Below are positions 4,101-38,596 of a stretch of 51,466 nucleotides of DNA, one piece after another. The stretch is from the IMG/VR virus record IMGVR_UViG_3300033998_000199, positions 1 to 51,466 of that record; one strand, written 5' to 3'. The position numbers were made by a program, and so were the translations under genes. Origin of the DNA: a virus (lineage: Duplodnaviria > Caudoviricetes). Under the pieces are notes generated by a model. The model did not search any database, had not been told where the DNA came from, and worked only from the letters and a program-made list of their open reading frames with translations. How positions within the stretch are numbered: the stretch's first letter is position 1; the number at the start of each line of letters is the position of its first letter.

Positions 4101-4103
4101 GAG

Positions 4104-14595: not shown

Positions 14596-14768
14596 GAGAA
14601 CGAGCCTTTACCTGCGGGCGCGTGTTTGCCAAGACGCCGACAGAAGCCAAGGCAAAAGTATACGAGCAGGTACGTGCAAATGGCTTCACACCGCTTGACT
14701 GCTTTGGAGTTTATGAAACAGGTGTATGTGGCTGGTATGAATACTACATCGAAATAGAGGATATGTAA
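14592..14768 (+). CDS. Hypothetical 58 aa protein (not in ORF track)
   Basis: ATGA overlap with the upstream stop; ends just before the terminator. Confidence 0.55.
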   Translation: MRERAFTCGRVFAKTPTEAKAKVYEQVRANGFTPLDCFGVYETGVCGWYEYYIEIEDM

Positions 14769-17716: not shown

Positions 17717-17848
17717 AGGACTCACTCCTTTTCAAAAAGAACGGGGGCCGCGGCGCTACTACATATTGGGATACGATGAGGTGGTTCACCTCCGCGTTTT
17801 TTTTTTTTTTGGTGTTTTGTTACGCGGCCCCACAACGTTGAAACGCTC

Positions 17849-19733: not shown

Positions 19734-19879
19734 ACACTTCGCCTCCTTTTTGTTTCCTTGGTATGTATTGGGTGGCCGAGGCGGAGGCCAAGGAGGAACC
19801 TGTTTTGCCACCAACCTTCCGCCTTTCCATACCGTCTGGCTGTAGTGGCCGTAGGCCAGCGGTACCACCTCGGAGAAGG

Positions 19880-20305
19880 TTAGAAGGTAATGCGCTTCTT
19901 GACCTGCTCGGGCTCAAGAGGCATTACGGCATCGACACGGTTACGCACAGTGTCCTGGTACGCCTCTTGGCGCACCTTGATCTTGCATGGCTTGTTGTGG
20001 ATTTCTGTGGTGTCGAAGGTGAATTTGAGCGCGTCGGTCGGCAGGACTCCAAGCGCCTTTAGCACCTTTCCAAGCTTCCACATCGCTTTTGGTGTAAGAG
20101 CGTAGTTTTCAAACACTTTCCGACCGGTGAACTCAGGATGGTTCTCGATAACGAAGCACAGTGTCAGGTAATCGTTTCCGTTCTGGCTCCTCTTGACTTC
20201 TGCTTGGCTGGCGTCCACCCGGGCCTGATAAACACCAGCCGGAATAGGCTCAAACTCCTTGTCTTCGAGGTCTACCCCTGTGAAATCAAGCAACAGACGC
20301 GGCAT
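19880..20305 (-). CDS. Phage single-stranded DNA-binding protein (DUF669-like)
   Basis: FEPIPAGVY..SQNGNDYL..GRKVF..AMWKL; follows the AAA_24 gene. Confidence 0.75.
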   Translation of the reverse strand: MPRLLLDFTGVDLEDKEFEPIPAGVYQARVDASQAEVKRSQNGNDYLTLCFVIENHPEFTGRKVFENYALTPKAMWKLGKVLKALGVLPTDALKFTFDTTEIHNKPCKIKVRQEAYQDTVRNRVDAVMPLEPEQVKKRITF

Positions 20306-21050
20306 TTGCTTTTACCTCCTCTTGATTTTGGTTTTCAATAGCCTTAAAGATTTGCAATAGGTTCGGTTTCTCGACAACTGGCGGAAGACTGCCACCGGGG
20401 TTCTTAGCAGCGTAAACGTCCGTTGGTTGCACCAGGAGCTTGCGGACGTAAGCGCCGTCAACTTCCTGTACGCCAAGGTAGCCTACCAAGTTGCAGTACG
20501 CCGGTAGCTCCTCAGCTAAGGACTTCGGCTGGACAAGCGGCACACGCCGCATCTCATTCCTAATGTCCATCACCAAGGCGGTAAACACCACATGCATCGG
20601 CAGGTCGCGGAACATCCGCACAATGTTGCGAAGTCGCTCCTGTACTCGATACCAGTCGCCCTGCTCTGGTACATCCGGGTCGTGAGACGGCCTACGCTCT
20701 ATCGCCGCACTGAGAGTCATACGCATGATGCGGCGATACAAGTCGGTCAGGCTGTCAAGCACTAGCGTTTGGTAGTCGTGCTGTCCAGAGGCGAGATACT
20801 CATAAGCGTTCTCCAGGTCAGCCCACTCTTCGATTTCCCACACGTCTGGGTCGATTCCCAAGTCGCGCTTGACCGCCAACATGGTCGCATCCGACACCGC
20901 TGGTTCGGTCAAGAGCACCAACGGCTTCGGCGCCGTGCAGGCCAAGTAAGTCTTCCCTGCTCCCGGCTCCCCGTAAATGAGGGCCTTCACGTAGACCTTT
21001 CTGGTGGATACCTTTTTAATTTTCGGCGGCTTCAACACAGTCTTGGTCAC
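20286..21050 (-). CDS. AAA_24 / Sak4-like ATPase (recombination)
   Basis: IYGEPGAGKT Walker A; LVLDSLT Walker B; AKN motif. Confidence 0.85.
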   Translation of the reverse strand: MTKTVLKPPKIKKVSTRKVYVKALIYGEPGAGKTYLACTAPKPLVLLTEPAVSDATMLAVKRDLGIDPDVWEIEEWADLENAYEYLASGQHDYQTLVLDSLTDLYRRIMRMTLSAAIERRPSHDPDVPEQGDWYRVQERLRNIVRMFRDLPMHVVFTALVMDIRNEMRRVPLVQPKSLAEELPAYCNLVGYLGVQEVDGAYVRKLLVQPTDVYAAKNPGGSLPPVVEKPNLLQIFKAIENQNQEEVKANAASVA

Positions 21051-21929
21051 TTAAGCAACCTCCTTTTCCTCTTCCTTCTTGATGTAGAAGGTGTTGACTA
21101 AGTCTTTGACATCACTACCGTCCTCCTCAGCAATACAAAGCTGCCTATATGAGCACCGCCACCCGCAGTGATGGCCAGGGGTAGGTGGGAACTCCTTGTC
21201 TCCGGCAATGCGCTTATACATTACGTACAAGCGCTTCCGAAGCACTTGAAGCTCGTGTTCGTTACGCATTACCCAGTAGCGGTAGACCGTTTCTCCCCTG
21301 GCCCTGTCAGGATCAACTTTCTTGAGAATCGTGTAGATGATCCCAACTACACGATCATTTGGGAAAAGCTGCTCGGCAGCTACCAGGTAGAAACCTGCCT
21401 GCGCGTCCAAGCGAAGCTCAGATTCGCTCGGCACCTGCGAATACGTCTTAAACTCTTTGAGCCAGATGCTACCGTAGATGTCCCGTACGATGCCGTCAAA
21501 CCGCCCGACGTGTCTTACTCTTGGCACCTTCCGGCCAGAGGGTGTCCAAATAGGCACCTCGAACGGCTGCTCCATCGAAACGACCTCAAAACCGTCGTTT
21601 GCTCGCGCCCACTCGAAGTAGTGAGCCAACATCTTCTTCCCAAGCTCAAAGTCCTTTTGGAACTCTTCTACCTGCTCTGGGGTCATGTCCGGCGAAATCT
21701 TTGCCGTCTCTTCTTCCATCCACTTGGTGTAAGCGTCTAAACCAACTTCTGGACGCCGCGAAGGATCGGTATAGTACGCTTCCAAGCCTTTGTGGACGCC
21801 GGAGCCGAGAAACGGCTTGTGATCGGGAACATTTGGCACAAGCTTGTCGACATACTGGTAGCGGTACATGCGTGGGCAGACGTTGTAGGTGACTATTTCC
21901 GAAGCGTGTAGCTCACGCATTTTTGTCAT
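21051..21929 (-). CDS. PD-(D/E)XK (RecB/Cas4-like) exonuclease
   Basis: CPR..Y, GSGVH, GRFDG..EFKT, QAGFY, C-terminal HCGWRCSYRQLC. Confidence 0.85.
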   Translation of the reverse strand: MTKMRELHASEIVTYNVCPRMYRYQYVDKLVPNVPDHKPFLGSGVHKGLEAYYTDPSRRPEVGLDAYTKWMEEETAKISPDMTPEQVEEFQKDFELGKKMLAHYFEWARANDGFEVVSMEQPFEVPIWTPSGRKVPRVRHVGRFDGIVRDIYGSIWLKEFKTYSQVPSESELRLDAQAGFYLVAAEQLFPNDRVVGIIYTILKKVDPDRARGETVYRYWVMRNEHELQVLRKRLYVMYKRIAGDKEFPPTPGHHCGWRCSYRQLCIAEEDGSDVKDLVNTFYIKKEEEKEVA

Positions 21930-22155
21930 AGCGCTGCACCTCTTCCGCAGCAGGTTCTAGAGCAATAAAGGCGTTGCGAAGGAGCACCATTGCGGCGGTG
22001 CAAAGGAACTGAGGATCACCAGCGCAGTCTCCCACGACGTTGCCTTTCACGTCCTGAGCAATGAGGATAAACTGCGCTATGTCCCGGAACCTGTGGTCAT
22101 GGCCTTTGTCCACAAACAAGCTCAACTGGGACGGCTCAATTGTGATCTCGTACAT
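21913..22155 (-). CDS. Hypothetical protein
   Basis: AAAGGAGG RBS; coupled within the operon. Confidence 0.6.
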   Translation of the reverse strand: MYEITIEPSQLSLFVDKGHDHRFRDIAQFILIAQDVKGNVVGDCAGDPQFLCTAAMVLLRNAFIALEPAAEEVQRYDKNA

Positions 22156-23746: not shown

Positions 23747-23762
23747 TTTTTTCTACCACCCC

Positions 23763-23791
23763 TAGACAACAAAGCTACCGTGTGCTATAAT
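23763..23791 (+). promoter_or_regulatory. sigmaA promoter antisense to cro, pointing at cI-int (PRE-like position)
   Basis: TAGACA-17 bp-TATAAT with extended TG; GTGTG-N8-CACAC inverted repeat over the -10. Confidence 0.7.
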
Positions 23792-23811
23792 ACACACAGT
23801 GCAAACACAAA

Positions 23812-23994
23812 TTACGCAAACAACTCGTCTATAGTCACGCCAAGCACAGCAGCAATTTTTCTAGCAGTTGCTATGGTTGGGGTGCGCTTGCCGTGTTCGA
23901 TGAGGTACCAAGCATTGAGCGTGATACCTGCCGCCCTGGCCGCCTCCTCTTGGGTCAGGCCCTTGGCCCGGCGGTATTGCGCTATTCTGTTCAT
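23812..23994 (-). CDS. Cro-like XRE HTH regulator
   Basis: RRAKGLTQEEAARAAGIT...IEHGKRTPT; divergent from cI. Confidence 0.88.
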   Translation of the reverse strand: MNRIAQYRRAKGLTQEEAARAAGITLNAWYLIEHGKRTPTIATARKIAAVLGVTIDELFA

Positions 23995-24037
23995 CAACCA
24001 CCACCTCTTTTCCACCAATCTGTTTTCGTCTGCCTGT

Positions 24038-24066
24038 ATTATAGCATACTGTTAGTAAACAGTCAA
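24038..24066 (-). promoter_or_regulatory. Lytic promoter for the cro/replication operon
   Basis: TTGACT-17 bp-TATAAT with extended TG on the minus strand. Confidence 0.8.
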
Positions 24067-24086
24067 TACACTAGGAGGGATTTTGT

Positions 24087-24911
24087 ATGGTAGGAGCTTC
24101 GCGTGAAGCTAGAGAAACGTTGGCTAGGACATTACGGAACTTGCGGACGGGACACAACGTAACCAGAAGGGAACTAGCACGAGCAATCGGAGTGGCGGAA
24201 AACACAATCTACCTCTACGAGACCATGAAGCGATACCCTGAACCGCACATCTTGGAGAAACTTGCTGCATACTTTGGAGTACCTATCTCAGAACTAACCA
24301 GACCAGAAGTTCCGACAGGGGAACTGCGTTCCGATCTCGAGGAAGTTAAAAAACAACTGACTGACTTACAAAAGCGGGTAGTCGAGAGTACTATACCGCG
24401 TGAAGAAGATTTGAAAGAAATGCAACGTTTGGCAAGGCGTGCCGCCTATTTAGAAAGCACCCTCAAGGAAATCACGAACTCCTTTTTGCCTACAAAGTTA
24501 GTTCCAATCCTAAGCAAAGTCCCTGCTGGGCTGCCCATCTACGTCGGCGATCCAGACGTAGAAGACTGGCAACCAGTCCTAAAAGACAGTGATGTCGACT
24601 ATGGGTTAGTCGTAATCGGAGACAGCCTCACCGATGTGGACATCCACGCTGGAGACATCATCCTTGTCCACAAAACCCCCACAGCTAGCGTAGGGGACTT
24701 GGTGGTCTTCCGCGTGGGTGATGGGTACACGGTTAAGTACCTCGCCCAGAAGGACGGCAAATATGTTCTCCGCGCAGCCAATCCGAATTACCAGGACATA
24801 GTAGTCGACAACGAAGAGTTCGCAATAGAAGGCGTTGTTCGCAATATCCTCAAAGCAGTGCCACGTATGCCGCGCGGTGATAGCAATGGCACGAACGAAG
24901 AAACGTGCTAA
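24087..24911 (+). CDS. CI/LexA-like repressor (HTH plus S24 autopeptidase)
   Basis: XRE HTH; VPAG cleavage site, GDSL Ser, TVK Lys. Confidence 0.92.
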   Translation: MVGASREARETLARTLRNLRTGHNVTRRELARAIGVAENTIYLYETMKRYPEPHILEKLAAYFGVPISELTRPEVPTGELRSDLEEVKKQLTDLQKRVVESTIPREEDLKEMQRLARRAAYLESTLKEITNSFLPTKLVPILSKVPAGLPIYVGDPDVEDWQPVLKDSDVDYGLVVIGDSLTDVDIHAGDIILVHKTPTASVGDLVVFRVGDGYTVKYLAQKDGKYVLRAANPNYQDIVVDNEEFAIEGVVRNILKAVPRMPRGDSNGTNEETC

Positions 24912-26067
24912 CGGCGAAGGCACAGTCTACCAGCGTGCCGACGGCCTGTGGGTCGCCCAAATGGTAGTCCGATCCACAGGCAAACGTCGGAGCTTCTACG
25001 GCAGGACGCAAAAGGATGTCCTACAAAAGCTCAAAGCTGCCCAAGCAGAAGAAACCAGCGGGACGTACATTGAGCCAAGTAAAATAACAGTCGCGGAGTG
25101 GTTAGACACTTGGCTAAAGACCTACAAGAAGCATGACCTCCGCCAGACAACTTGGGATTGTTACGAAATGCTCGTGCGGCGGTACATCGTCCCGGCTATT
25201 GGTAGCGTGCGCTTGCAACAATTGCAACCGCAAATGCTGCAACAGCTATACAACGACGTTTTGGCTAAAGGTAAGTCGAGACGCACGGCAGCTTTAATCC
25301 ACACGGTCATACACGCTGCTTTGGATCAAGCAGTACAAAACCAGGTAGTACAACGCAATGCTGCCGAAGCTGCCCACCCACCCCGCCAGGAAAAGCAGGA
25401 GAGGCGCTGCCTATCATCGGAAGAAACGATGCGGCTTATCGAAGCCGCCAAAGGCGAACGCCTCTACGCTGCTATAGTCCTAGCCCTAAGTACGGGCCTG
25501 CGGCGTGGTGAACTTCTCGCGCTGAAATGGGAAGACGTTGATTTTGAGAACAAGCTTCTATATGTCCGGCGCAACCTGGTGACTATACGCAACCAGGAAG
25601 GTCGGACAAAAACAAGGAACGTGGAGCAATCGCCTAAGACGAAAACAAGCAACCGCATTTTGCCGTTGTCCGATGAGCTCATAGACCTGCTTAAAGAACA
25701 CCAACGAAAACAGGAAGAGGACAAAACCACTTTTGGCGAGGGCTACCAGGACAACGGCTTCGTGTTTTGTACTACCAAGGGAACGCCGATAAGCCCACGT
25801 AATTTCTCCCGGTTCGTTGCGCGGATAGCAGAAAAGGCGGGCCTCAAAGGTGTCAGCCCGCACACGCTGAGACACACCTTCGCGACCCGCCTAGCTGAAT
25901 TAGGCGTGTACCCAACAGTTGTCCAGAAGTTGTTGGGCCACGCTACAGTGGATGTCTCGATGGAAGTCTACTCCCACGTCTTCCCGGACGTGGAACGTGA
26001 TGCAATCGAAAACCTGTCGTTGCATTACGGTTGCATTACTGGGCATAAGGAAAGCCCTCCAGAATGA
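24886..26067 (+). CDS. int: Tyrosine integrase
   Basis: RANGEGTV N-terminus; GLRRGE, KT, HTLRH, LGH and VY catalytic motifs. Confidence 0.95.
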   Translation: MARTKKRANGEGTVYQRADGLWVAQMVVRSTGKRRSFYGRTQKDVLQKLKAAQAEETSGTYIEPSKITVAEWLDTWLKTYKKHDLRQTTWDCYEMLVRRYIVPAIGSVRLQQLQPQMLQQLYNDVLAKGKSRRTAALIHTVIHAALDQAVQNQVVQRNAAEAAHPPRQEKQERRCLSSEETMRLIEAAKGERLYAAIVLALSTGLRRGELLALKWEDVDFENKLLYVRRNLVTIRNQEGRTKTRNVEQSPKTKTSNRILPLSDELIDLLKEHQRKQEEDKTTFGEGYQDNGFVFCTTKGTPISPRNFSRFVARIAEKAGLKGVSPHTLRHTFATRLAELGVYPTVVQKLLGHATVDVSMEVYSHVFPDVERDAIENLSLHYGCITGHKESPPE

Positions 26068-26079
26068 TCTGGAGGGCTT
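26052..26079. terminator. Hairpin at the int 3' end; lies downstream of the restored tRNA after integration
   Basis: AAGCCCTCCAGA-ATGA-TCTGGAGGGCTT perfect 12 bp stem. Confidence 0.7.
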
Positions 26080-26087
26080 GATATTCC

Positions 26088-26133
26088 TGGAGCCGACGAT
26101 GGGACTCGAACCCGCAACCTGCTGATTACAAAT
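26088..26133 (-). other. attP core: 3' half of tRNA-Thr(TGT)
   Basis: Minus strand ATTTGTAATCAGCAGGTTGCGGGTTCGAGTCCCATCGTCGGCTCCA: anticodon loop, T arm, acceptor 3' strand and CCA; no 5' half present. Confidence 0.9.
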
Positions 26134-26241
26134 TATGAGGCGTTATATAGCGCCACGTTCACAAACACCTGCAAAAGCCTCGGTACTTCTACGCTTTCTC
26201 GGGTGTTAGGAACTGTTTTATAGCACCTGTTACACGGTCCT

Positions 26242-26421
26242 TTACGGCCTTGTTGCATTACTGGTTGCATCATCTTCCATACCGGGAATTTTATTTTCGG
26301 GAATCCTGATAAACCTTCCCAAACGAACAGCCGAAAGCTGTCCATTATTCACCAGCTTGTAAACGTGAGAAGGAGTAAGTTTTAGCATCTCAGCTACCTC
26401 TGCCACGGTGTAGTATTTCAT
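26242..26421 (-). CDS. xis: Excisionase-like HTH_17 protein, 59 aa (not in ORF track)
   Basis: MKYYTVAEVAEMLKLTPSHVYKLVNNGQLSAVRLGRFIRIP; adjacent to attP. Confidence 0.8.
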   Translation of the reverse strand: MKYYTVAEVAEMLKLTPSHVYKLVNNGQLSAVRLGRFIRIPENKIPGMEDDATSNATRP

Positions 26422-26726
26422 CTGGCATCCCCTTTCAGGATACCCAGCCCAAGCAGGGCGTACAGTATAATATCCCGCAGGCGGCTTTCAGCTTCAGGAT
26501 CATAGATGTTGTTCCTCTCAAGGGCTATTATATGCTTATCAGCAAGAACAAGCAAGACTTGAAATAGGTCGGCTTTTTCTGTACCATTAAATATTCGCCT
26601 TGCACTCTCTCTAAAATTGTAGAATACATCTTCATCTGCCCCGTAGGAGTTGTTCTTACTCTCAAACAACCTAACCAATCTCTCAAACTCTTCGCGCATG
26701 AACGAAGCAAACTCGGCGCGAGTCAT
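26418..26726 (-). CDS. All-alpha NTP-pyrophosphatase-like protein (DUF1599/Nmad1-like)
   Basis: KNNSYG..D.FYNF..DKH..E.RLRDIILY pattern; GGAGG RBS before ATG 26726. Confidence 0.6.
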   Translation of the reverse strand: MTRAEFASFMREEFERLVRLFESKNNSYGADEDVFYNFRESARRIFNGTEKADLFQVLLVLADKHIIALERNNIYDPEAESRLRDIILYALLGLGILKGDAR

Positions 26727-26877
26727 ACTACAATCACCCCTCCAGCTTTTTGCGCTCGAAGAACGGCAGACAACTCTCCTCCCATGCATCCCGCACAACG
26801 CCCACGGCAGTACAAAGCCGCAGGCGATCATTGTACCACTTGCAATCAGCGCATTTTCCCCAATCTTTGGGCATCGG

Positions 26878-27084
26878 TCAGCAAGCCTCCCTTCTAAAAA
26901 CATAGCCGATGACATCCTCTGCCACGGCAACACGCGCAAACGTATACTTCTCTAAACACTCTCTGCTACTGTGAATCACCTCGCCGTTGGGGAAGAAATA
27001 TACTTCCTCCCCCTGGTAAATTTCCAATCCGCAAGCCGGACAATAAGCCAATGGCTCGTCATGATAACGCCGTATTCTGATCAC
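26878..27084 (-). CDS. Small Zn-binding hypothetical protein
   Basis: CPAC..H..C pattern. Confidence 0.6.
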   Translation of the reverse strand: MIRIRRYHDEPLAYCPACGLEIYQGEEVYFFPNGEVIHSSRECLEKYTFARVAVAEDVIGYVFRREAC

Positions 27085-27383
27085 GCGCTTTTGGCCTCCT
27101 CCAAGTAAGGCGCAGCCTCTGCCTCAGTAGCTAAAGCATCAAAAATAACGCCGTCAACGACCTTCCGGAATCGGTAAGGGAAATAATACGGACAATCTCT
27201 AATAGGCTCCGTAAGAATTTCCCAAGAGCCAGGCAGGTGTTTTAACCTGCTCGGGCTACTCACAAGCACTTTAATACGTGGAGGCGAAAACAGACTATAA
27301 TCTACACTCACCAAAAGCACGCCGATTTCAGAAAACTTGTCGAGCACTCCTTTTAAGTTTTGGACAAGCTCCTTCACTTCCAT
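27081..27383 (-). CDS. Hypothetical protein
   Basis: AGGAGG RBS; operon context. Confidence 0.6.
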   Translation of the reverse strand: MEVKELVQNLKGVLDKFSEIGVLLVSVDYSLFSPPRIKVLVSSPSRLKHLPGSWEILTEPIRDCPYYFPYRFRKVVDGVIFDALATEAEAAPYLEEAKSA

Positions 27384-27384
27384 G

Positions 27385-27540
27385 CTACTTCCTCCTTCTT
27401 AGCTCCTTTGCTAAAGTCAAAACCGCACACTCTCCGGACAGAGAATCCCACCACGCACACTCTTCCTCCCAGCACCGCCCACAACCCTTACTGGAAATCC
27501 AGTTAACCAAAGTGAATGGACACACTTTTCGTTGTTCCAT
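27385..27540 (-). CDS. Cys-rich 51 aa protein (not in ORF track)
   Basis: MEQRKVCPF...CWEEECAWWD...CAV. Confidence 0.55.
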   Translation of the reverse strand: MEQRKVCPFTLVNWISSKGCGRCWEEECAWWDSLSGECAVLTLAKELRRRK

Positions 27541-27543
27541 TTC

Positions 27544-27687
27544 TCACATTCCCCCTATCGCTTTCACTTGGTGAAATACCCAAACCGCCATAACCAAAAA
27601 CAGCCCGGCGCTTAACACACCGAGCCACAAGCCTACCCAACGGTCGTACTTGTCAGAAATGATTATCTCTACTAGGCGATCAAGCAA
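27544..27687 (-). CDS. 47 aa membrane protein (not in ORF track)
   Basis: AAGGAGG RBS, TTG start; hydrophobic WVGLWLGVLSAGLFLVMAVWVF. Confidence 0.55.
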   Translation of the reverse strand: MLDRLVEIIISDKYDRWVGLWLGVLSAGLFLVMAVWVFHQVKAIGGM

Positions 27688-27736
27688 ACAGCCACCCTCC
27701 TTAAACTAAACGGCCCGGATCGCTCCGGGCCTCGCT

Positions 27737-28051
27737 CTACTTCCCACACCTTGGACAACGTGGAATTTCCCCACTATCAAGCACCTTTTCTGCTTCAATC
27801 GCCTCCTCCTCTGTCAAGTGGTATCCACACACAAGACACCACATTTCGCCTTCCCTACCATACAAGGAAGGAAGGCTATCCGTAAACCAGACATCATAAC
27901 CTTCCTCATACGGCCCTCTGGGAGTAATGTAGTCATCGCTGTCCAAATGCCCACAGGAAGTAGCTGCAACATCCTCCAAGTCAATCTCTTGTTTACAGAA
28001 TGGACAAACAACAACCGTTTGATCTTTGCCAATACGCACACGAACCTTCAT
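27737..28051 (-). CDS. Zn-ribbon hypothetical protein
   Basis: Start MKVRVRIG after GGAGG; CPFC, CLVC and CPRC. Confidence 0.6.
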   Translation of the reverse strand: MKVRVRIGKDQTVVVCPFCKQEIDLEDVAATSCGHLDSDDYITPRGPYEEGYDVWFTDSLPSLYGREGEMWCLVCGYHLTEEEAIEAEKVLDSGEIPRCPRCGK

Positions 28052-28079
28052 TTTCCCTCCTCCTTCGTGTATGGTGTTG

Positions 28080-28370
28080 CTATGGCCGAAACAACGGCCA
28101 CAACGTACCACCGTTTTTCTTGTACTCGCGAGTAATATCCGCCCAGTACTTGCGAACCACTTCCAAAAGATCAATTTCCTCTGCTAGCGTGTAGGCGCCT
28201 CCGGCGGGGCCTTTCACCTTCGTTTCGGCCCACCACTTCCCGCCCGAGCGAAATACCCGCCACGCCACGGGTGGGCCTGCTCTGAATGTGACAAATGAAA
28301 ACTCAGGCTCACCTTGCAGCGGGTACATCTCGGGCAATCTCTCAACGAACTCTTCAGGGGTCATCTTCAT
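28080..28370 (-). CDS. Hypothetical protein
   Basis: AAAGGAG RBS. Confidence 0.6.
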   Translation of the reverse strand: MKMTPEEFVERLPEMYPLQGEPEFSFVTFRAGPPVAWRVFRSGGKWWAETKVKGPAGGAYTLAEEIDLLEVVRKYWADITREYKKNGGTLWPLFRP

Positions 28371-28456
28371 CTTCTTCTCCTTTCATGCCCGGCGGCTTAT
28401 CCCGCCCGCGGCTATGTACGCGCCCTCCGGCTAGTAGCCATCATTGGGCAACCAAC

Positions 28457-28666
28457 TCAAACCCCACGCCGTAGGGCAGCGACGGCAGCCTGCCTCGCTA
28501 AGGGGTGAGCAGGCTTCTCCCCCTTGGCAACGGCTTCCAACCAGGAGATAATTTCCTGGCAGGAAAAACCGCTCACAGGGTCAACGCCGTCATTGTCGAC
28601 GGCCCTTTCATACTGTACGAGGGCCGCCCTCACGTTCGCAGGGTAAACAACCGAAAACATTTTCAT
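28457..28666 (-). CDS. Hypothetical protein
   Basis: GAGGAGG RBS; coupled to the upstream gene. Confidence 0.55.
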   Translation of the reverse strand: MKMFSVVYPANVRAALVQYERAVDNDGVDPVSGFSCQEIISWLEAVAKGEKPAHPLARQAAVAALRRGV

Positions 28667-28927
28667 TCATTCCTCCTCTTCTTCAGGATAAAGAGCATCT
28701 ACAACGTCCCGCACGTCTTGCGCATCCTGCAAGACGTTGCAGAGTTTACCGATCAGTTCCACTTCCTTCCAACCGACGGAAAGAGGAGCTACCCTATCGT
28801 CCAACCGTTCCCCTCCGGGTAGCGAGACAAGTATCTTCATAACTAGACGCTGGAAGTCCTCGGTTTCGCTAGGTAGCCAAGCCTGCAACTCTTCCACCAC
28901 GGCCTTCACTTCTTCGCGCATAGCCAC
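28667..28927 (-). CDS. Hypothetical protein
   Basis: GAGGAGGAG RBS. Confidence 0.6.
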   Translation of the reverse strand: MAMREEVKAVVEELQAWLPSETEDFQRLVMKILVSLPGGERLDDRVAPLSVGWKEVELIGKLCNVLQDAQDVRDVVDALYPEEEEE

Positions 28928-28933
28928 TCCTCC

Positions 28934-29197
28934 TCACTCAACGTAGTAATCATATATTTTGAGTTGTACATCTACAGGCACTTCTTCAAAGTCGTCTTCT
29001 TCCGGCAAATATCTAGTACAAGTTTCATCGAAACAAACAATCCACGAATGATAAGTTTTCCTCATGTATTGAAACAGCTCTTCTGCATTACGAAACTCCT
29101 TCACCTCAAGAAAATCCCAATCAGACGCTTTTGTGATACCTGCTCTTATCAAGTAATTTCCCTCCTTCGCGTCAAATCTTATTTGCAAGCTCTTCAT
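28934..29197 (-). CDS. Hypothetical protein
   Basis: ORF in operon orientation; AT-richer than its neighbours. Confidence 0.5.
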   Translation of the reverse strand: MKSLQIRFDAKEGNYLIRAGITKASDWDFLEVKEFRNAEELFQYMRKTYHSWIVCFDETCTRYLPEEDDFEEVPVDVQLKIYDYYVE

Positions 29198-29361
29198 AAC
29201 CCAACTCTAACAACACTCCCCGCAAGAATGGACGGTCAACGGCTTTTTGCTTGCCGAAAATCTTCAACACGCACACTAGCTTTTCCTGGCTGGATAGCTT
29301 AGGATTGTCCATTATGGCAAATATTTTGTTTATAGTTTCCTTACGCATAAAGCATTACCTC

Positions 29362-30063
29362 CTAGTAGGCCGCCAAAAGACTGCGACACGCCTTATAAGC
29401 TTCCAACGCCTCAGCAAACTGCGGATCGTCTTCCAAGTAGTCGCGAAGCTCTCTTACATCCGAAAATACTTTGCTGCTACCGTCACCATTTAACAAGAAT
29501 ACCTGGCCTGCATAAATGCTCCCTTCTTGCTCAAGGAGCAGGGCGAATTCTTCTGGCACGTAGTAAGTCAAACCGTTCTCTTTTGGGTCTTCACCAAAGA
29601 AGCCATAGCAGGAGTCTTCCACCTCAAAATTGTGACCTGTCCAAGAATACGCCACGAACCCATAGACGCGCCCTTCCAAGTAAAGACTGTATTCTTCCAC
29701 TTCACCCTTGAGAAGCTCTTCCACCTTTTGTCGCACTTCGGCAGTTACCTTTTTGACTCCAAAGTTTTCCTTAATCTTGGCATAACTAGCGTAAATGTAA
29801 CCAACTTGGCCACTGTCCCAAGGGTCATTAAACGGCCTGGTAGACATTGCCAGACCGCTATGGTCGTACAAGTAAAGCGGCAGAACTACGAACTGCTTCT
29901 CGCCCCCGTTCTTGCGAACAAAGCGCCAGAAATCCTCCGGCGTACCAAAGGCGTGCTTGTCTCCCAAGTCGTAGCGTTTATGCCAGCAAACCATTGTTCC
30001 TAGGTTGTCCCATTCTCTGGGATTCTCTGGACTCTCGTCTAGCACGATTTTCAGAAAACGCAT
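29362..30063 (-). CDS. Conserved-looking mobile-element hypothetical protein
   Basis: NPREWDNLG..HKRYDLGD..LPLYLYDHSG..WDSGQVG..DSCYGF motif series; AAAAGGAGG RBS. Confidence 0.7.
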   Translation of the reverse strand: MRFLKIVLDESPENPREWDNLGTMVCWHKRYDLGDKHAFGTPEDFWRFVRKNGGEKQFVVLPLYLYDHSGLAMSTRPFNDPWDSGQVGYIYASYAKIKENFGVKKVTAEVRQKVEELLKGEVEEYSLYLEGRVYGFVAYSWTGHNFEVEDSCYGFFGEDPKENGLTYYVPEEFALLLEQEGSIYAGQVFLLNGDGSSKVFSDVRELRDYLEDDPQFAEALEAYKACRSLLAAY

Positions 30064-30230
30064 CAGAATTCCCTCCTTTTGATCATTAAGCAACCGTTCC
30101 AACGATCCTCTAAAACACTCCAACCACACAAACACCAGGGAACCAAGGCAATGGTGCCAATCGGTGCGGTGAGCTTATTAACCGCCTAAAACACCTCCAG
30201 CCTGGAAATATGTATTAGAGGAAGAGGAGA

Positions 30231-30542
30231 TTACTCCTCTTCCTCAACAACGGGTAGATCACTCAAGAAGTCAGTTGCCTTGAGGACGGCCTGCACGGCG
30301 TCAGCTATAGCATGAGCTGCCTTCTCGTCAGTAGGCACGACAACTGACAAGTGGTCTCCATCTTTGATTTCTCCCCAACTTACAAATAACCTCTCCGAAA
30401 CGGCCTCCAGGATTTCAGGGGAGCCCTGAATCCTCACCCGGAAGCCGTCTTCTCCTAGGTCTCTTACACATACCAACACACTAGGCACCTCAAATACAAC
30501 CGCGTAAACGCTGCTTGTCTGTGGAGACTTAAATGTCTTCAT
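30231..30542 (-). CDS. Hypothetical protein
   Basis: AAGGAGG RBS. Confidence 0.65.
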   Translation of the reverse strand: MKTFKSPQTSSVYAVVFEVPSVLVCVRDLGEDGFRVRIQGSPEILEAVSERLFVSWGEIKDGDHLSVVVPTDEKAAHAIADAVQAVLKATDFLSDLPVVEEEE

Positions 30543-30563
30543 TTCCCAAAACCTCCTTAGTTT

Positions 30564-31361
30564 TTAGTTTTTCTTAAGGAACGAATTACATCCAACATCG
30601 TCTTCAAATATTTCCCAATCATACACCAGACACGTTCCTTCCATACTCGCTTTTGAGTATGGAAGGAAATGAGCGCACTCTCCGCAACACCTCCCTTCGG
30701 CGTTTTTGTCCCGTCGGTGTGAAGAAGCAGCGCCACCTCCCTTAACAACAATGCCGTAATCGTCCCAGTAGTCGTAATAACTGAATCCCGAAATGATAGT
30801 CTTGGCAGGCTCGTACTTCTCCAACTCCGGCCTGCCAAGAACTTCTGCAACCTCCTTTATTTGCTCCTTGGTCTCAAGGACCTTGGAGCAATATTTCTCT
30901 CGCAATAGCTTAATGGGATCTTGTACACCTAAGCGGCCAAGTAGGACAGATGCAAAGTAACCCGTCCTGCCGTGGCCGCCTATGCAGAAAACTCCGATTG
31001 ACTTCCCTTCTGCATATTTTTGCAGAAGGTAGTCAATTTCGCGTAAAAGCACGTCGCGAGGGAGTATAGACATATCGCGAACCGGCACGTAATGAATTTC
31101 CCCACGCCAACCCTTGTCCCACACGTCCCCGTGGAGGGAATCAAGCGGGACAAGGATGTCTACCTTATGCTCGTTTGCCATTTTTATAGATTCAGACAAA
31201 CTCCCAACCAATATCCGGGGGTAAACCTCTACCGGCCCAGTATGGCAGGGAGTATACTTAGTTCCTGCTGTCGTTGTTGGCAGGTTCGTAGTTGCCAAGT
31301 TGTTCTTCAAAATCTTCTCCATACGCTTCCTCCTGTTCCTCTTCTTCTTGCTCATACTCAT
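30564..31361 (-). CDS. Dual-specificity / protein-tyrosine phosphatase-like protein
   Basis: CX5R loop FCIGGHGRTG, upstream PVRD general acid, ETKEQ; Cys-rich C-terminus. Confidence 0.85.
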   Translation of the reverse strand: MSMSKKKRNRRKRMEKILKNNLATTNLPTTTAGTKYTPCHTGPVEVYPRILVGSLSESIKMANEHKVDILVPLDSLHGDVWDKGWRGEIHYVPVRDMSILPRDVLLREIDYLLQKYAEGKSIGVFCIGGHGRTGYFASVLLGRLGVQDPIKLLREKYCSKVLETKEQIKEVAEVLGRPELEKYEPAKTIISGFSYYDYWDDYGIVVKGGGAASSHRRDKNAEGRCCGECAHFLPYSKASMEGTCLVYDWEIFEDDVGCNSFLKKN

Positions 31362-32148
31362 ATTCTTCCTCCTCTTCTTCCTCTTCCTGGTCTTCGACAA
31401 TTTCGTCGGGGAGAATTGCTTCTCCCCAACTCACTGGGGAGTATTCGAGAACAAGCTTCACGCAATAGTCAATGTCTGCTTGCGTGCTCTTAGAACGCTC
31501 TCTAAAAGCACGCATAAATTCGGGGAGTATGCCAAGGTTGCAGGCACGTTCAATCAATGCCTGCAACTTGGTAGAGAGGAACAATTCATAAATTAGGTCT
31601 TCAGGAGCGTAACTCCGCTTCATGTCAAGCAGTTCTTCGTATCTAGAAGAACTGCACATTTCGAATATTCCAGCCTGGTACTTGTCAAAGTACGGTGAAG
31701 AATTGTGTGACAAATCAACGCAATGGTCTATGAACGTTACATCATCCCACTTTCCATACTGAAGACCGGCGTGGGCAATTCTAGCCCACGCTTCTCCACC
31801 GTAGTTACTTCCCCAGTCCAATTCGTTGAAAAGCCTATAACAAGCACGCAATACGCTGTAAGGCTCGTATCTTTTTGCATACTCCATCGCAGAACCGCGT
31901 CCGCCGCCTTGCGGGATGTACGGGTTATAATAACCCGTACAAGCACGGGCATGGCGTGCTTCACCGGCACAAGCAAGGACCGTGTAGTCAAACACGGCCC
32001 TTGCAAGGTTTTTAACATAAGCTTCCTTGTAAGAACGGAAATCACGCTCCCACTTCTCGTGAGACTTAAGGAAAGGATCAACAGCCTTTAGCGCATCCAC
32101 CAAGGAGATCCCATAAAATTCACTGACGACGAAACTAACTTCAATCAC
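31258..32148 (-). CDS. Hypothetical helical protein with acidic tail
   Basis: AAGGAGG RBS; motifs GEARHA, YGGEAW, FIDHCVDLSHN; poly-Glu C-terminus. Confidence 0.7.
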   Translation of the reverse strand: MIEVSFVVSEFYGISLVDALKAVDPFLKSHEKWERDFRSYKEAYVKNLARAVFDYTVLACAGEARHARACTGYYNPYIPQGGGRGSAMEYAKRYEPYSVLRACYRLFNELDWGSNYGGEAWARIAHAGLQYGKWDDVTFIDHCVDLSHNSSPYFDKYQAGIFEMCSSSRYEELLDMKRSYAPEDLIYELFLSTKLQALIERACNLGILPEFMRAFRERSKSTQADIDYCVKLVLEYSPVSWGEAILPDEIVEDQEEEEEEEEYEYEQEEEEQEEAYGEDFEEQLGNYEPANNDSRN

Positions 32149-32192
32149 AGTAAACCCTCCTTGACCTGGTGTAGGTATGTATTAGCAGGGTT

Positions 32193-32384
32193 TTAACCCT
32201 GCTTATTAACGCGCTCCCTTTCCAGAATTAGGAAAGGAAGCTCGACCTCCGGCAACAAGTTGCCGGAAGCTAAGTAATCCAAAACCTGGTTCGCAAAGGC
32301 TTCCACTCTCGCCAACTCCTCCCGGGAAGGCTGCTTCCCGACAAGGGAGAAACAGAACCTAATGCCATCGTCATACCACCGCAT
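32193..32384 (-). CDS. Hypothetical protein
   Basis: AAGGAGG RBS. Confidence 0.55.
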   Translation of the reverse strand: MRWYDDGIRFCFSLVGKQPSREELARVEAFANQVLDYLASGNLLPEVELPFLILERERVNKQG

Positions 32385-32454
32385 GATGATCCTCCTTCAC
32401 AAAAATTCACCCCGGCCGTTTTGACCGGGGCGTGGTATGTACAGAAAGAGAAGG

Positions 32455-32775
32455 TTAAAGCACCTTCTCTGTAAAGAGTTCAGGAAGTCTATAACCGCGT
32501 AGGAGCTCTTCATCGCCGCCGTAGTAGCCAATGTAGGAAATGGCAGCAGCTAGAACTTTCTCCTTCTGGGAACGAAACGGTGGACAATCGCCGCCGTAGC
32601 AGCCACGATGCTTGCCTTTTAATACTTCCTTCAATGAAGGGTAGGCTCGAACCACGATCGTGGTATTCGTTTCATCATCATAATGGGCTTCTGTTATGTC
32701 GACAAAACCGGCACTAACTTCCACAAAAAGCCCGTAATCAGGGGAGTAAGAATCAGTTAATACCATTGTTAGCAC
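32455..32775 (-). CDS. Hypothetical protein
   Basis: AAAGGAG RBS. Confidence 0.6.
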   Translation of the reverse strand: MLTMVLTDSYSPDYGLFVEVSAGFVDITEAHYDDETNTTIVVRAYPSLKEVLKGKHRGCYGGDCPPFRSQKEKVLAAAISYIGYYGGDEELLRGYRLPELFTEKVL

Positions 32776-32784
32776 CTCTCCTTT

Positions 32785-32985
32785 CTAACAATGATAGTTA
32801 AGGTAACATTGCAAATTGCAGAAAGCTCCTTCAGCAAAACGCGTCCCAAACTTTTCGTATTCGCTTTCTGGAATATACTGGAACAACGTCCTCTTTTCCC
32901 TTCCGCACCAAGCACAAGTTCCTCCAGGAACAGAAACCCTAACTAAACCTTCTCTCGCAAAGGGATCATAGCCAACAACCACCAC
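32785..32985 (-). CDS. Small Zn-finger-like protein
   Basis: CAWC...FCNLQC. Confidence 0.6.
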   Translation of the reverse strand: MVVVGYDPFAREGLVRVSVPGGTCAWCGREKRTLFQYIPESEYEKFGTRFAEGAFCNLQCYLNYHC

Positions 32986-33042
32986 AAGAAACCTCCCCTC
33001 TCATGGAGGAATATGTACCAAAAGGACTAGGCAATTAAGCGC

Positions 33043-33438
33043 CTAGTCCAAGGCAATCTCTTCAACCAAACATTGATAAAGAACGTTGCCGATATACTCT
33101 TTCACGTCTTGGTATTTCCCAAATGGACCTTTGACAACAACGTCAATTTCAGCGAGCGTTAACAAAGGTTTTACCGTAGCGACAAAATCAATCCAACCAA
33201 CGTAATAACCTTCTTCCATCACGTGATAAGACCCTACCAACACAAGCTTGTCTTTGCTGGTCCTTTCAATATCAACCTTCACGCCGGCGTCGAAACCAGA
33301 CCCATGCGGCAGGTAGTTTTCCTCCACCTGCCGGATAGTCTCCAAATGCCTTTCTTCCCATTCAGCATTTCCTGTTTTACGGCAATTTTTCACGGCGTCA
33401 ACTTTCCCAGCGAGAATTTGGTAAACTTTGCCTTTCAT
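33043..33438 (-). CDS. Hypothetical protein, first gene of the early leftward operon
   Basis: AAAGGAG RBS before ATG 33438; LPHGSGFDAG motif. Confidence 0.7.
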   Translation of the reverse strand: MKGKVYQILAGKVDAVKNCRKTGNAEWEERHLETIRQVEENYLPHGSGFDAGVKVDIERTSKDKLVLVGSYHVMEEGYYVGWIDFVATVKPLLTLAEIDVVVKGPFGKYQDVKEYIGNVLYQCLVEEIALD

Positions 33439-33466
33439 GGAAACCTCTCCTTTCCAGGGTATGTAT

Positions 33467-33841
33467 GCTAGCCAACGGCGTTGGTTGGCGTGTTTGCAAC
33501 CAGCTTGCGTCCAAGCGCAAGCGTAAAGCGAATGAGCGACGTACTGGCGCGCGTACGCAAGGCTAGCTTTACGTACGTTCGCGCGTAGCAGCTTGCATGT
33601 TGCCATCAAGCTGCAAGCCTGCCGGACACTTGCCGCACGTCGCCCAGGCCGCCTTAGCTACTGCCAAAAGCTGGCAGTGGGTTGGCGTCCCAGACTAGAG
33701 CGGTAGGCCGGAATCCCAATCCTACTCTGGTATTCGGCACCCGTCATTGTAGGGCAGGGAATACTTCCCACTAGGTTGTCGCGGGTGTCAAGCTTGCTTG
33801 ACTAACAGTTGTTAGACAAGCGCGCTTGACACGGCGGCAAC
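33467..33841. ncRNA. Highly structured non-coding region (candidate ncRNA or ssDNA structure)
   Basis: Multiple hairpins including a 67 nt imperfect palindrome at 33775-33841; no credible CDS. Confidence 0.45.
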
Positions 33842-33850
33842 AGCTGGTCT

Positions 33851-33871
33851 TTATTCGGATTGTCAATGTAC
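33851..33871 (-). promoter_or_regulatory. boxA-like antitermination element
   Basis: GTACATTGACAATCCGAATAA resembles Firmicute rrn-leader boxA; about 120 nt downstream of the early promoter. Confidence 0.45.
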
Positions 33872-33998
33872 GGTTGGTCGCTAGCCGGTCACTGTGCCGA
33901 CGTTACCAGTTGCCATGGGAGAAGGACTGTTGCTGGTTGCTATCACTTCCTCCTTTCCGTTTGCTAGCGCTTGTTCTCTAGCGCCTTGTTCTGGCTCC

Positions 33999-34027
33999 AT
34001 TGTACTATCTACCGTCTTGTATTACAA
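33999..34027 (-). promoter_or_regulatory. sigmaA promoter for the early leftward operon
   Basis: TTGTAA-17 bp-TACAAT. Confidence 0.6.
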
Positions 34028-34406
34028 CTGACGTTATAGCGCATTTTGGGTGATCTACGGCCGTTAGATGCGCCAAGCTCTGCCGCGCTCACTCACCCTA
34101 ATATTTTCACGGTTTTTCACAATACCTGCCGGCCGGCCCCGGCCAGGGGGCGCAACCGATGATGCGCAGCCGGCCCAGGTATGATAACAGTTTTCATTCG
34201 CCACTCTCTCACAATTCCGTCGACTACACTTTTGCCAATTTTGCAAATTGTATGGGTACCCCGGTCCGAGCCGGAACGCGCGAAGAACCGCCACGGACTA
34301 GACTTACCGCTCTATACATACCCCGCCCTGGTATTTTCGGGCCGGTACGGAAAAAGTGCCTATTCACACAGTTGTTGGTACAACACACTAACAATTCCTC
34401 ACCAAG

Positions 34407-34738
34407 TGTCCCCTGCTGTCCCCTGACTGTCCCCTGGGCCGGGGGACACGATTTCGCGAGCTTGGAGGAGAGAGAGAGAGAAAGAGAAAGATTTACTATA
34501 CTGTCCCCTTTGTCCCCTTAACGCGGTACATAAGACCCTTCCTAGAGTCGGTTTTCCATACCCCCTCATGAGTGTAGAGGAGGAAAAACACAAAAAAGTT
34601 AGAGGTCTCTCTCCTGGAAAAATGGGGGACATAGGGGACACGACCACCAAACCCGCGTCGCTACTGGCTGGAGCTGTCCCCTGGGCCGGGGGACAAGTCC
34701 CCTTTTTCAGGGGACAGACCACCCCCAAATAGGGGACA
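34407..34738. repeat. Iteron cluster, putative replication origin
   Basis: 12 exact TGTCCCC/GGGGACA copies in both orientations; 22-mer CTGTCCCCTGGGCCGGGGGACA at 34427 and 34674; just downstream of the primase-helicase. Confidence 0.8.
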
Positions 34739-34901
34739 AAAAAGCGCCCCAGCCATTTTTTGCAGCTGGGGCTAAGAGATTTCATGGCATACTCGTATGG
34801 GGTATTATTTCCGGTATTTTTTCTTGCTGCAAATGCAGGGTTCTTTTAGGGGGCACTCGCTGCATAGGCCATCGAAAAGGAGTGTAGGGTACATACACGT
34901 G

Positions 34902-37454: not shown

Positions 37455-37469
37455 TGTTTGTCACCTGCC

Positions 37470-37652
37470 CTACTTGGCGGAGCCGAGCAGTTCTTCTAGG
37501 TAGCTCCTGGGGATCGTTATCTTATCGCCGACTTTGACGTGCGGGATTTTGCCCTCCTTGATCAGTTTGTAGGTGTACCAGCGAGATACACCCGTGATTT
37601 CTGCGAACTCTTTGACTGATATTAGTTTTCTTTTCTCGTTTAGTTCTGGCAT
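37470..37652 (-). CDS. HTH_17 excisionase/AlpA-like regulator
   Basis: LISVKEFAEITGVSRWYTYKLIKEGKIPHVKVG. Confidence 0.8.
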   Translation of the reverse strand: MPELNEKRKLISVKEFAEITGVSRWYTYKLIKEGKIPHVKVGDKITIPRSYLEELLGSAK

Positions 37653-37687
37653 CTCTAACACCCCTCTTTGTTGGTCTCGCACTGCTT

Positions 37688-37717
37688 ATTATACTGCGGC
37701 GTTGTCCGGTGTGTCAA
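37688..37717 (-). promoter_or_regulatory. sigmaA promoter for the HTH/primase operon
   Basis: TTGACA-18 bp-TATAAT. Confidence 0.8.
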
Positions 37718-37739
37718 TGCTGTTTTATGACGTTGTGTG

Positions 37740-37768
37740 TTGACTTTAGGTGTTAGATCAGTTATAAT
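37740..37768 (+). promoter_or_regulatory. sigmaA promoter for the structured RNA array
   Basis: TTGACT-17 bp-TATAAT. Confidence 0.82.
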
Positions 37769-37900
37769 TGTCTCGGTGATACTCCCCACCGTCGCCCGGA
37801 CGGGCCGGTCAACGACGGTGGTGTGGAATGCTTGGGCTATGGGGGCTGTGGCGGCACACGTGCCGTAAGCCATGCGTGGCGACGACAGCATCCCATAGCA

Positions 37901-38024
37901 GCTATGGGGTGGCGGAATAGGTAGACGCGGTATGCTTGCGGCAGGATACGGTTTAAGACCGCAATAAAAGCGGGGCAACGTGAAAAAGCCTGCCATGCGA
38001 GGTGCAAATCCTCGCCCCCATAGC
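37901..38024 (+). ncRNA. tRNA-like RNA with expanded anticodon domain
   Basis: 9 bp closing stem; Leu-type D arm TGGCGGAATAGGTAGACGC; T arm CGAGG-TGCAAAT-CCTCG. Confidence 0.65.
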
Positions 38025-38484
38025 GAACGGCCACGACCCCGGCGGTGGTGCGTCGATCCGAGCCAGCCTCGCCTGGCGAGACGAATAGCTGGCGAAAGAC
38101 GCCTGAGCGTGGCCCGGTACATACTTGCCCCGCTCGCAAGAGGAGACTGAAACGCCGAATGGCGCGTAGGTCGAAAGATGCACGGCGGGGTGGGTGTTGT
38201 CCTCCGCCCGCGAAAGCTGGCTCCATGCCATGATTGCCTAACGGCGACTAGCGGCGGACGGGCAGATACCTTACAGCAGCGGTTGGATGCCCATAGCGTC
38301 CGTTGGCCGCAAGGCCCCGCTGCTCCTCTCTGTACTGCTGAGGCTGTGGTGTGGTGAGGGCAGGTACACCCGTTGCGGTGATGGCCTGCGTGTAGGCAGT
38401 ACAAATGGGCGGTTAATCCGCAACGCTGACCGTTTTGGTTGGATAGGCCCTAGTGGGCTGAGGGTTCACCGCCCGTACATACTC

Positions 38485-38560: not shown

Positions 38561-38596
38561 CAATACAAAAGGATTAGTTACTGGAGGTTTTGCACC

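Follow-up and report, generated by a model that had tools for sequence, protein, structure and literature searches.

We analysed a DNA stretch of 51,466 nucleotides (nt) (IMG/VR record IMGVR_UViG_3300033998_000199, here called the window), which is the entire virus record with an estimated completeness of 96% and encodes a temperate tailed phage. In this genome the hexamer TACATA (UACAUA in RNA) is absent from the sense strand of all mapped genes and enriched in the spacers between them, where it typically lies a few nucleotides past a stable hairpin. From the sequence, we give about even credence to the reading that these intercistronic hairpin-UACAUA modules are programmed cut sites for MazF, a toxin endoribonuclease of the host. 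This reading is favoured because the hexamer matches the published site of the enzyme, the depletion is confined to the sense strand, the linkers are enriched and hairpins lie upstream of the sites.

A map of 71 genes was curated in this analysis and cross-checked with PHROG hits, giving 46462 nt of coding and 5004 nt of non-coding DNA. On both strands together TACATA has 25 copies against 12.61 ± 3.85 in 100 dinucleotide shuffles, none of which reached 25. There is no copy on the sense coding strands, 11 copies are antisense within genes (1939, 4257, 5033, 7459, 13500, 18734, 22151, 23057, 40918, 43152 and 48176), and 14 copies lie in the non-coding DNA. Two codon-preserving nulls were used with 2000 shuffles each, a synonymous shuffle and a codon-order shuffle, for which 5.61 ± 2.10 and 6.58 ± 2.54 sense copies are expected and the probability of finding none is 0.0025 and 0.0020, respectively. 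A first-pass annotation of the same DNA had reported no sense coding copy, together with the caution that codon usage lowers the expected count. The automated count agrees with the absence (P about 0.002), but the caution does not explain it, as nulls that preserve the codons still expect 5.6-6.6 copies. Antisense copies within genes, at 11 where the two nulls expect 8.2 and 6.7, show no depletion. Neither does the pentamer TACAT, found 29 times in sense coding DNA against 32.6 and 36.6 expected (TACATC 12, TACATG 10 and TACATT 7 copies), and the earlier remark that TACAT(C/G/T) is common there also holds.

It may be noted that all 4096 hexamers were ranked, independently of the motif choice of the first-pass annotation, with a second-order Markov model of the spacers as the null for non-coding DNA. 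By this ranking TACATA/TATGTA comes second in non-coding enrichment (14 copies against 2.53, P 4.9e-7), after the ribosome-binding hexamer AAGGAG. One-base variants of the hexamer are present in linkers in 0-3 copies each and are not enriched. Also, TACATA is 4.4 times as dense in the non-coding DNA of the window as in that of bacterial loci with similar GC content under the same crude open reading frame (ORF) mask, so the enrichment is no general property of such genomes. Counting by strand and coding class finds both a sense depletion, against the codon-preserving shuffles, and an intergenic enrichment, against the Markov null. In the 13 gaps of the early leftward operon (660 nt), 5 sense copies and no antisense copy are found where 0.175 are expected (P 1.2e-6), and on adding the leader the sense copies become 6 against 0.21 expected (P 9e-8), antisense copies remaining at zero. 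As read from the sequence and the gap list, 6 of the 8 longer spacers of this operon, leader included, carry the motif. Ten exact UACAUA copies lie in the sense of inferred transcripts, and the base that follows TACAT is A in 10 of 11 transcribed non-coding cases against 0 of 29 sense coding ones (Fisher P 1.3e-8). Nine linker or sense coordinates reported earlier (28413, 30209, 32176, 32436, 33012, 33460, 19762, 38118 and 38476) and three plus-strand copies that had been called unexplained (34315, 34527 and 34890) are exact. That list of non-coding copies is real throughout, except that those at 14762 on the minus strand and 17760 on the plus strand were overlooked. The antisense copies, put at about ten, number 11, with two of the example coordinates off by one (4257 and 5033 are correct).

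The hairpins associated with the sites are found on their upstream side, where the median minimum free energy (MFE) is -13.6 against -7.2 for controls (P 6e-5, only approximate because the control positions overlap one another). In the copies at 30209, 32176, 32436, 33012, 33460 and 14762, a stem of 6-10 bp after the stop codon ends 2-6 nt short of the hexamer. The first-pass annotation had instead seen most sites followed by a hairpin, and had built an argument on a 5′ stem-loop after the site. The 36 nt downstream give no support for this (median MFE -4.9 against -6.8 kcal/mol in controls, P 0.66), and the argument fails statistically. Strong downstream stems are present at three sites (28413, 32436 and 33012), and downstream of the 33012 copy the stem pairs CCUCC with the Shine-Dalgarno (SD) sequence. 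A pair of pyrimidines directly follows the motif in 12 of the 14 non-coding copies, as counted by eye. The start codon follows at 22-52 nt at six of the seven sites measured, the 30209 copy being 146 nt upstream. Local folding of 126-nt segments gives 12 of the 14 sites a mean unpaired probability of 0.54-0.96; this predicted accessibility is compatible with a single-stranded site, though not distinctive.

End-mapping in B. subtilis by Taggart et al. (2025, PMC11780869) reports that EndoA, the MazF homologue also called NdoA, cuts U/ACAU only if A comes next and that the cuts are ndoA-dependent. A strict six-base U^ACAUA specificity is reported for the enzymes of B. subtilis, Listeria and S. 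aureus in the preprint of Frenkel et al. (2026, 10.64898/2026.08.06.743204), which also describes avoidance of the UACAUA site in the 16S rRNA of MazF-encoding Bacillota and a stationary-phase MazF activity that is population-wide and non-lethal. The MazF of Symbiobacterium thermophilum likewise prefers UACAUA (PMC10893535), and some UACAUA sites on the cleavage maps of S. aureus fall in untranslated regions, including a site 7 nt ahead of a tRNA-Thr (PMC7470975). The partition in the phage mirrors the enzyme, in that the hexamer alone is purged from genes and the hexamer alone is enriched in linkers. The interpretation of the first-pass annotation, which had to postulate a hexamer-specific endoribonuclease, is partly supported: it gains plausibility from the published cutting of U^ACAUA and not UACAU(C/G/U) by EndoA, while its argument from downstream stem-loops falls away.

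The tRNA-Thr attP core, an endolysin with Amidase_3 and SLH domains, a Cu_amine_oxidN1 domain in a phage protein (Pfam) and strong SD sites of the AAGGAGG type point to a Bacillota-type host. The endolysin has its best GenBank phage match in a Moorella phage, at 40%. A tRNA-Thr attB had been proposed before, and the 46 nt next to the integrase are indeed identical to the 3′ end of tRNA-Thr(UGU). With a 25-nt attB probe, matches were obtained in at least 120 stretches of Bacillota, Chloroflexota and Armatimonadota genomes, the full 46-nt core being identical in many, so that no host species can be named. Each of the 5 Bacillota genomes tested among those sharing the attB has a PemK/MazF gene (123-131 bits). 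The Desulforamulus MazF aligns full-length to B. subtilis EndoA in PDB 4ME7 (E 4e-50) and is roughly 70% identical by a hand count on the printed alignment to the near-equal hit 7bxy. An EndoA-type MazF orthologue (E <= 1e-25) is present in 322 of 401 sampled genomes of the candidate host phylum, and the family would appear near-universal there. In the phage itself we found no PemK/MazF gene, as the first-pass annotation had stated. Also no nuclease, RNA-binding or MazE-like family was recognised in 67 proteins against PHROGs or in 47 against Pfam, most early proteins being ORFans. The window sequence is contained in four DNA runs of one study, and no RNA run is listed.

From the sequence statistics and hairpin association found here, the published specificity of the enzyme family and its prevalence in the candidate host phylum, we infer that an enzyme of this kind is present in the host, that it may cut at these sites and what the cuts would achieve. 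Depletion on the sense strand alone, with antisense copies tolerated, argues for a reader at the RNA level, since a signal in double-stranded DNA would not give the asymmetry. That linkers are enriched speaks for the site being used and not merely avoided, and the strong upstream hairpin is as expected for a protector of the 3′ end after the cut. The hexamer would act as an RNA-level signal, being the U^ACAUA recognition site of a host MazF of the EndoA/NdoA type. Purging of the exact hexamer from the sense strands of genes would leave MazF unable to cut coding RNA, and single copies would be kept in transcribed spacers, typically 2-6 nt past a stable post-stop hairpin and 20-50 nt before the next ribosome-binding site. 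MazF set free in stationary phase, under stress or on infection would then cut the early-left RNA, the replication-operon RNA and the long tRNA/late leader only at these sites. Of the two products, the upstream one would end in a 3′ hairpin resisting 3′ exonucleases and the downstream one would start with a 5′-OH. The outcome may be a punctuation of the operon into separately stable units, or a MazF-dependent fall in distal gene expression by which the phage would read the physiological state of the host. A wider proposal, which we hold to be possible rather than probable, is that this temperate phage, with an uncultured Bacillota-type host from the subsurface or soil, has an operon layout built around MazF, the conditional cut marks giving a stress or stationary-phase read-out for its developmental decision.

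The window has no DNA match among GenBank phages. Scans of IMG/VR anchored on proteins (seven proteins and one alignment) gave only distant matches at 24-50% identity, apart from one true relative, an IMG/VR fragment of 14.07 kb with a GC content of 57.6% that has eight genes in common with the window at 30-67% amino acid identity. A metagenome scan with the primase gave partial matches only, in 8 loci, covering parts of the protein at 27-49% identity. The 9901-11220 protein led to no prophage relative in 162 genomes of the class or 401 genomes of the phylum. Two distant loci and three prophages at the same tRNA show no comparable motif pattern.

Several of our observations weigh against programmed MazF cleavage. 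The sole relative found, the 14-kb fragment, has no TACATA and one TATGTA, and the hairpins after its SSB and polymerase genes come without the motif; the same pattern in related phages, proposed earlier as a check, is not seen in this fragment, where few copies would be expected at a GC content of 57.6% and which does not cover an early-left operon. The sense-coding depletion of TACATA, taken alone, is modest, ranking 53rd of 4096 hexamers. In 204 kb from bacterial loci with a similar GC content, 14 sense and 21 antisense copies were counted, a rate at which only about 3 sense copies would be expected in the window. Longer open frames enclose the copies at 19762 and 33460 (from GTG 19868 and TTG 33609, both without SD); the per-codon coding scores of the extensions (0.02 for 19868 and 0.003 for 33609) are at the low end of what real genes show (5th percentile 0.012), and the sense count would be 2 rather than 0 if both N-terminal extensions coded. 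Four of the 14 non-coding copies (17760, 34315, 34527 and 34890) are antisense to known transcripts, though the 17760 copy may be sense in an antisense RNA because it lies between a predicted plus-strand promoter and a T14 terminator. Two long early-operon gaps (31182-31257 and 27688-27736) are without the motif, the latter having a hairpin. The predicted accessibility of the hexamer is 0.56 against 0.62 for other AT-rich hexamers (P 0.75), and long-range folding leaves the 14762 copy and both leader copies mostly paired. The attB sequence is common to three phyla and does not fix the host. The ORFs of SPbeta and phi3T are reported to be enriched in UACAU, the opposite pattern, in a preprint where the pentamer is used (10.1101/2023.04.27.537455). 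Also, the benefit of added sites is conjecture, as plain avoidance would already resist MazF.

The strand asymmetry and the linker placement require a reader at the RNA level and not MazF in particular. The UACAUA(YY) after the hairpin may thus be read by an early ORFan of the phage or by another RNase or RNA-binding protein of the host, which would make the MazF match coincidental. The pyrimidines after the motif in 12 of 14 non-coding copies are not a known MazF requirement, an RNase could hide among the early proteins without a family match, and T4 RegB is reported as a phage-encoded, motif-specific nuclease of early mRNAs (PMC1702504). We nevertheless consider this unlikely, as the prior for an independently found hexamer to match the strict MazF site exactly is about 1 in 2000-4000, and the protein searches above recognised neither an RNase or RNA-binding family nor a PemK/MazF gene in the phage. 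If genes were purged only as anti-defence, with spacer copies tolerated or unrelated since cuts outside genes are harmless, the 0 sense coding copies against about 6 expected would be accounted for; the reported restriction of antitoxin-deficient SPbeta and phi3T by MazF (10.1101/2023.04.27.537455) and the avoidance of the site in 16S rRNA described by the Frenkel et al. preprint agree with this. Tolerance predicts a background level in spacers, however, and not 14 copies against 2.5 or, in the early operon, 6 against 0.2, nor does it predict a fixed position after hairpins, which makes avoidance by itself quite improbable.

A signal in the DNA has a small chance in our estimate, either as an element that resembles a -10 box and serves an alternative sigma factor or one directed by the phage, for which T4 late promoters are a parallel, or as an oriented regulator site, for which mycobacteriophage stoperators are one. 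Copies 22-52 nt upstream of start codons at six sites would suit it, and so would the cluster of three copies in the origin/regulatory region (34315-34890) and the four copies in the wrong orientation for RNA. Against it, no TACATA copy has a -35 partner in the promoter scan and the true consensus promoters are elsewhere; a promoter makes no sense 3 nt before the mature 5′ end of a tRNA (38476) or pointing out of the end of one operon into a convergent one (14762); depletion on the sense strand alone with 11 antisense copies is the opposite of selection against spurious promoters; and six conserved bases (plus YY) are too few for a specific DNA-binding site. We rate lowest of all the case in which the motif has no function, an AT-rich hexamer happening to recur in AT-richer spacers beside terminator-like hairpins while codon bias in genes disfavours ATA and NTA codons. 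The spacers do have a higher AT content than the genes, unrelated bacterial loci also have fewer sense than antisense copies (85 against 149), the first-pass annotation picked the motif with MazF in mind and the single relative shows no pattern. But the Markov null was drawn from the spacers themselves and still gives P 4.9e-7 and the second rank, codon bias is controlled by the codon-preserving shuffles, the non-coding density exceeds that of similar-GC bacterial loci under the crude mask and the one-base variants are unenriched.

Table. Positions and settings of TACATA/UACAUA copies outside genes and of associated features in the window (distances in transcript direction).
Feature	Coordinates	Strand	Setting
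UACAUA	33460..33465	-	early-operon leader; 22 nt ahead of ATG 33438; 5 nt past hairpin 33471-33489
UACAUA	33012..33017	-	57-nt gap between genes 33043-33438 and 32785-32985; 6 nt past post-stop hairpin 33024-33049
UACAUA	32436..32441	-	70-nt gap; 6 nt past hairpin 32448-32469; followed by GC-rich hairpin 32408-32432
UACAUA	32176..32181	-	44-nt gap; 2 nt past hairpin 32184-32203; GTG 32148 28 nt on
UACAUA	30209..30214	-	167-nt gap; 5 nt past 10-bp hairpin 30220-30243
UACAUA	28413..28418	-	86-nt gap; ATG 28370 43 nt on; upstream structure weaker, downstream hairpin present
UACAUA	19762..19767	-	replication operon, from SSB gene (19880-20305) to SD-led GTG 19733; probably non-coding
UACAUA	14762..14767	-	2 nt past terminal hairpin 14770-14793 after DNA polymerase stop; 3′ end of replication operon, no gene beyond
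UACAUA	38118..38123	+	within non-coding leader of about 700 nt from consensus promoter 37740-37768
UACAUA	38476..38481	+	3 nt ahead of tRNA-Met 5′ end (tRNA 38485-38561)
TACATA (three copies)	34315, 34527, 34890 (34315..34895)	+	non-coding control/iteron region from primase operon to early promoter; antisense to known leftward transcripts
TACATA	17760..17765	+	gap of leftward replication operon; 12 nt before plus-strand hairpin + T14 terminator (17778-17806); downstream of predicted promoter 17571-17598
Early leftward operon	26242..33438	-	about 21 small genes, none with sense TACATA; promoter-like TTGTAA-17-TACAAT at 33999-34027
attP core	26083..26128	-	46 nt equal to 3′ end of tRNA-Thr(UGU) of many Bacillota, Chloroflexota and Armatimonadota genomes; adjoins integrase 24886-26067

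Other identities were tried for the motif and its hairpins and rejected. As intrinsic terminators the upstream hairpins lack a U-run, only the hairpin before 33012 having a called tail (TTTTGG). As a sigma-70 promoter element, 0 of the 25 copies were called in promoter scans, the -10 box needing T at position 6, where TACATA ends in A, and a -35 partner spaced 16-18 nt away. Mycobacteriophage stoperators and start-associated sequences are conserved asymmetric intergenic repeats of about 13 nt or more; a repeat of this type was discarded as well, since only the hexamer and two pyrimidines are common to the 14 non-coding copies.

In the layout given by PHROG and Pfam hits with the gene map, structural and lysis genes are on the plus strand from 38597 to the end and then from 1 to 14595. 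The replication operon runs leftward from 23994 to 14802, downstream of a cro-like gene, and a leftward operon with a helix-turn-helix gene and the primase runs from 37652 to 34902. A cI-like repressor (24087-24911) and the tyrosine integrase (24886-26067) are also encoded. Consensus promoters agree with this layout (TTGACT-17-TATAAT at 37740-37768 on the plus strand and TTGACA-18-TATAAT at 37688-37717 on the minus strand), as do TTGACT-17-TATAAT at 24038-24066 and the early-operon promoter of the table, both on the minus strand. A rightward near-consensus promoter (23763-23791, plus strand, TAGACA-17-TATAAT with TG) reads antisense through the cro-like gene towards the cI-like gene and resembles a repressor-establishment promoter. 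Within the leftward replication operon, opposite the start of gene 17077-17691, a predicted promoter TTGCCA-16-CATAAT and a strong terminator (hairpin and T14) on the plus strand make 17571-17806 a candidate antisense RNA of about 200 nt.

The leader ahead of the first early gene (33439-33995, minus strand, about 550 nt) has several long hairpins, for example the inverted repeat 33785-33832, and a possible ORF of 22 codons after a AAAGGAGG site near 33945, with no Rfam match. The early gene 30564-31181 (minus strand, start codon uncertain) weakly resembles dual-specificity protein phosphatase domains (PTP-SAK, E 1.2e-5, just below the Pfam cut-off). Auxiliary genes on the plus strand are an S-adenosylmethionine decarboxylase-like gene between endolysin and holin (13001-13393) and a MazG-like pyrophosphatase gene (38597-38935), the first gene past the tRNA. 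GGGGACA/TGTCCCC words are clustered at 34400-34740, just downstream of the primase-operon terminator; the whole non-coding DNA has 13 copies of GGGGAC and GGGACA, their concentration here being read by eye. With an exact direct repeat of 22 nt (34427-34448 and 34674-34695) and further copies in inverted orientation at 34697-34717, these are probably replication-origin iterons. The plus-strand non-coding leader from the near-consensus promoter 37740-37768 to tRNA-Met (37777-38484, about 700 nt) has by eye a tRNA-Leu-like stretch with an insertion at 37905-38024 (a D-arm-like GGTAGA, the T-arm GAGGTGCAAATCCTC and acceptor ends that pair), where ARAGORN and Rfam call nothing. This region had been described earlier as an RNA array, of which tRNA-Met (38485-38561) is the one member called by ARAGORN/Rfam, and tRNA is the sole match in the Rfam scan for RNA families. 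The words most depleted in genes are those with GGWCC (TGGACC 0 against 15.9, GGACCG 0 against 14.6, GGACCT 0 against 14.0 and TGGTCC 0 against 11.4), together with the 6-bp palindromes GCCGGC, AGGCCT, GCGCGC, CCGCGG, GACGTC, GGGCCC and CCATGG. The pattern resembles evasion of several restriction systems of the host and could aid host identification.

The EndoA/MazF enzyme with its U^ACAUA site, a link between phages and MazF, and the intercistronic cutting of phage RNA are all known already. Among the papers listed in the literature searches, judged by title or abstract, none describes MazF sites set in the linkers of a phage, and these searches found no report of a phage with the single-stranded site of a host toxin beside protective hairpins and its removal from genes. 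It is only of late that the MazF of Gram-positive bacteria has come to be seen as a regulator with a strict six-base site, and as one that some phages inhibit, activate or sense. If programmed cleavage by host MazF is true, a toxin-antitoxin nuclease would serve as an mRNA-processing enzyme of a phage, and the phage would give the first example among viruses of a host toxin employed for programmed RNA processing or sensing. Its simple signature, UACAUA absent from sense genes and enriched in linkers, could then be screened across all Bacillota phages, and the role of MazF during infection would become directly testable with reporters and purified enzyme.

Among known systems, host RNase III cuts the early polycistronic mRNA of T7 at intergenic hairpins, and 3′ hairpins stabilise the products. 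The proposed arrangement is alike in having a host endoribonuclease act at dedicated intercistronic sites in early phage RNA; it differs in that RNase III is a housekeeping enzyme reading a double-stranded stem, whereas here a conditional toxin would read a single-stranded hexamer beside the stem. T4 RegB is reported to cleave early phage mRNAs at a specific sequence (GGAG), chiefly within their intergenic and SD regions (PMC1702504), but it is phage-encoded and destroys the SD to inactivate these mRNAs, while in the window the motif is separate from the SD and no such nuclease was found. In the arbitrium phages phi3T and SPbeta, which are reported to interact with host MazF (Guler et al., preprint 10.1101/2023.04.27.537455; Zamora-Caballero et al., PMC10769878), temperate Bacillota phage biology is likewise tied to an EndoA-type MazF that feeds the lysis-lysogeny decision, as is only proposed for the phage in the window. 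Those phages are described with MazE-like antitoxins (AimX, YosL) and UACAU-enriched ORFs, in contrast to the present phage, which has no recognisable mimic and the opposite distribution. A further parallel is the B. subtilis EndoA/NdoA regulon as reported (PMC11780869; 10.64898/2026.08.06.743204), with exactly the same hexamer, a decisive A at the sixth base and avoidance of the site in RNAs that need integrity, which are the 16S rRNA there and the phage ORFs here. MazF is seen in these reports as a precise regulator and not a killer; they describe cuts within the genes of a limited number of host mRNAs, whereas the candidate sites of the phage lie in spacers after hairpins.

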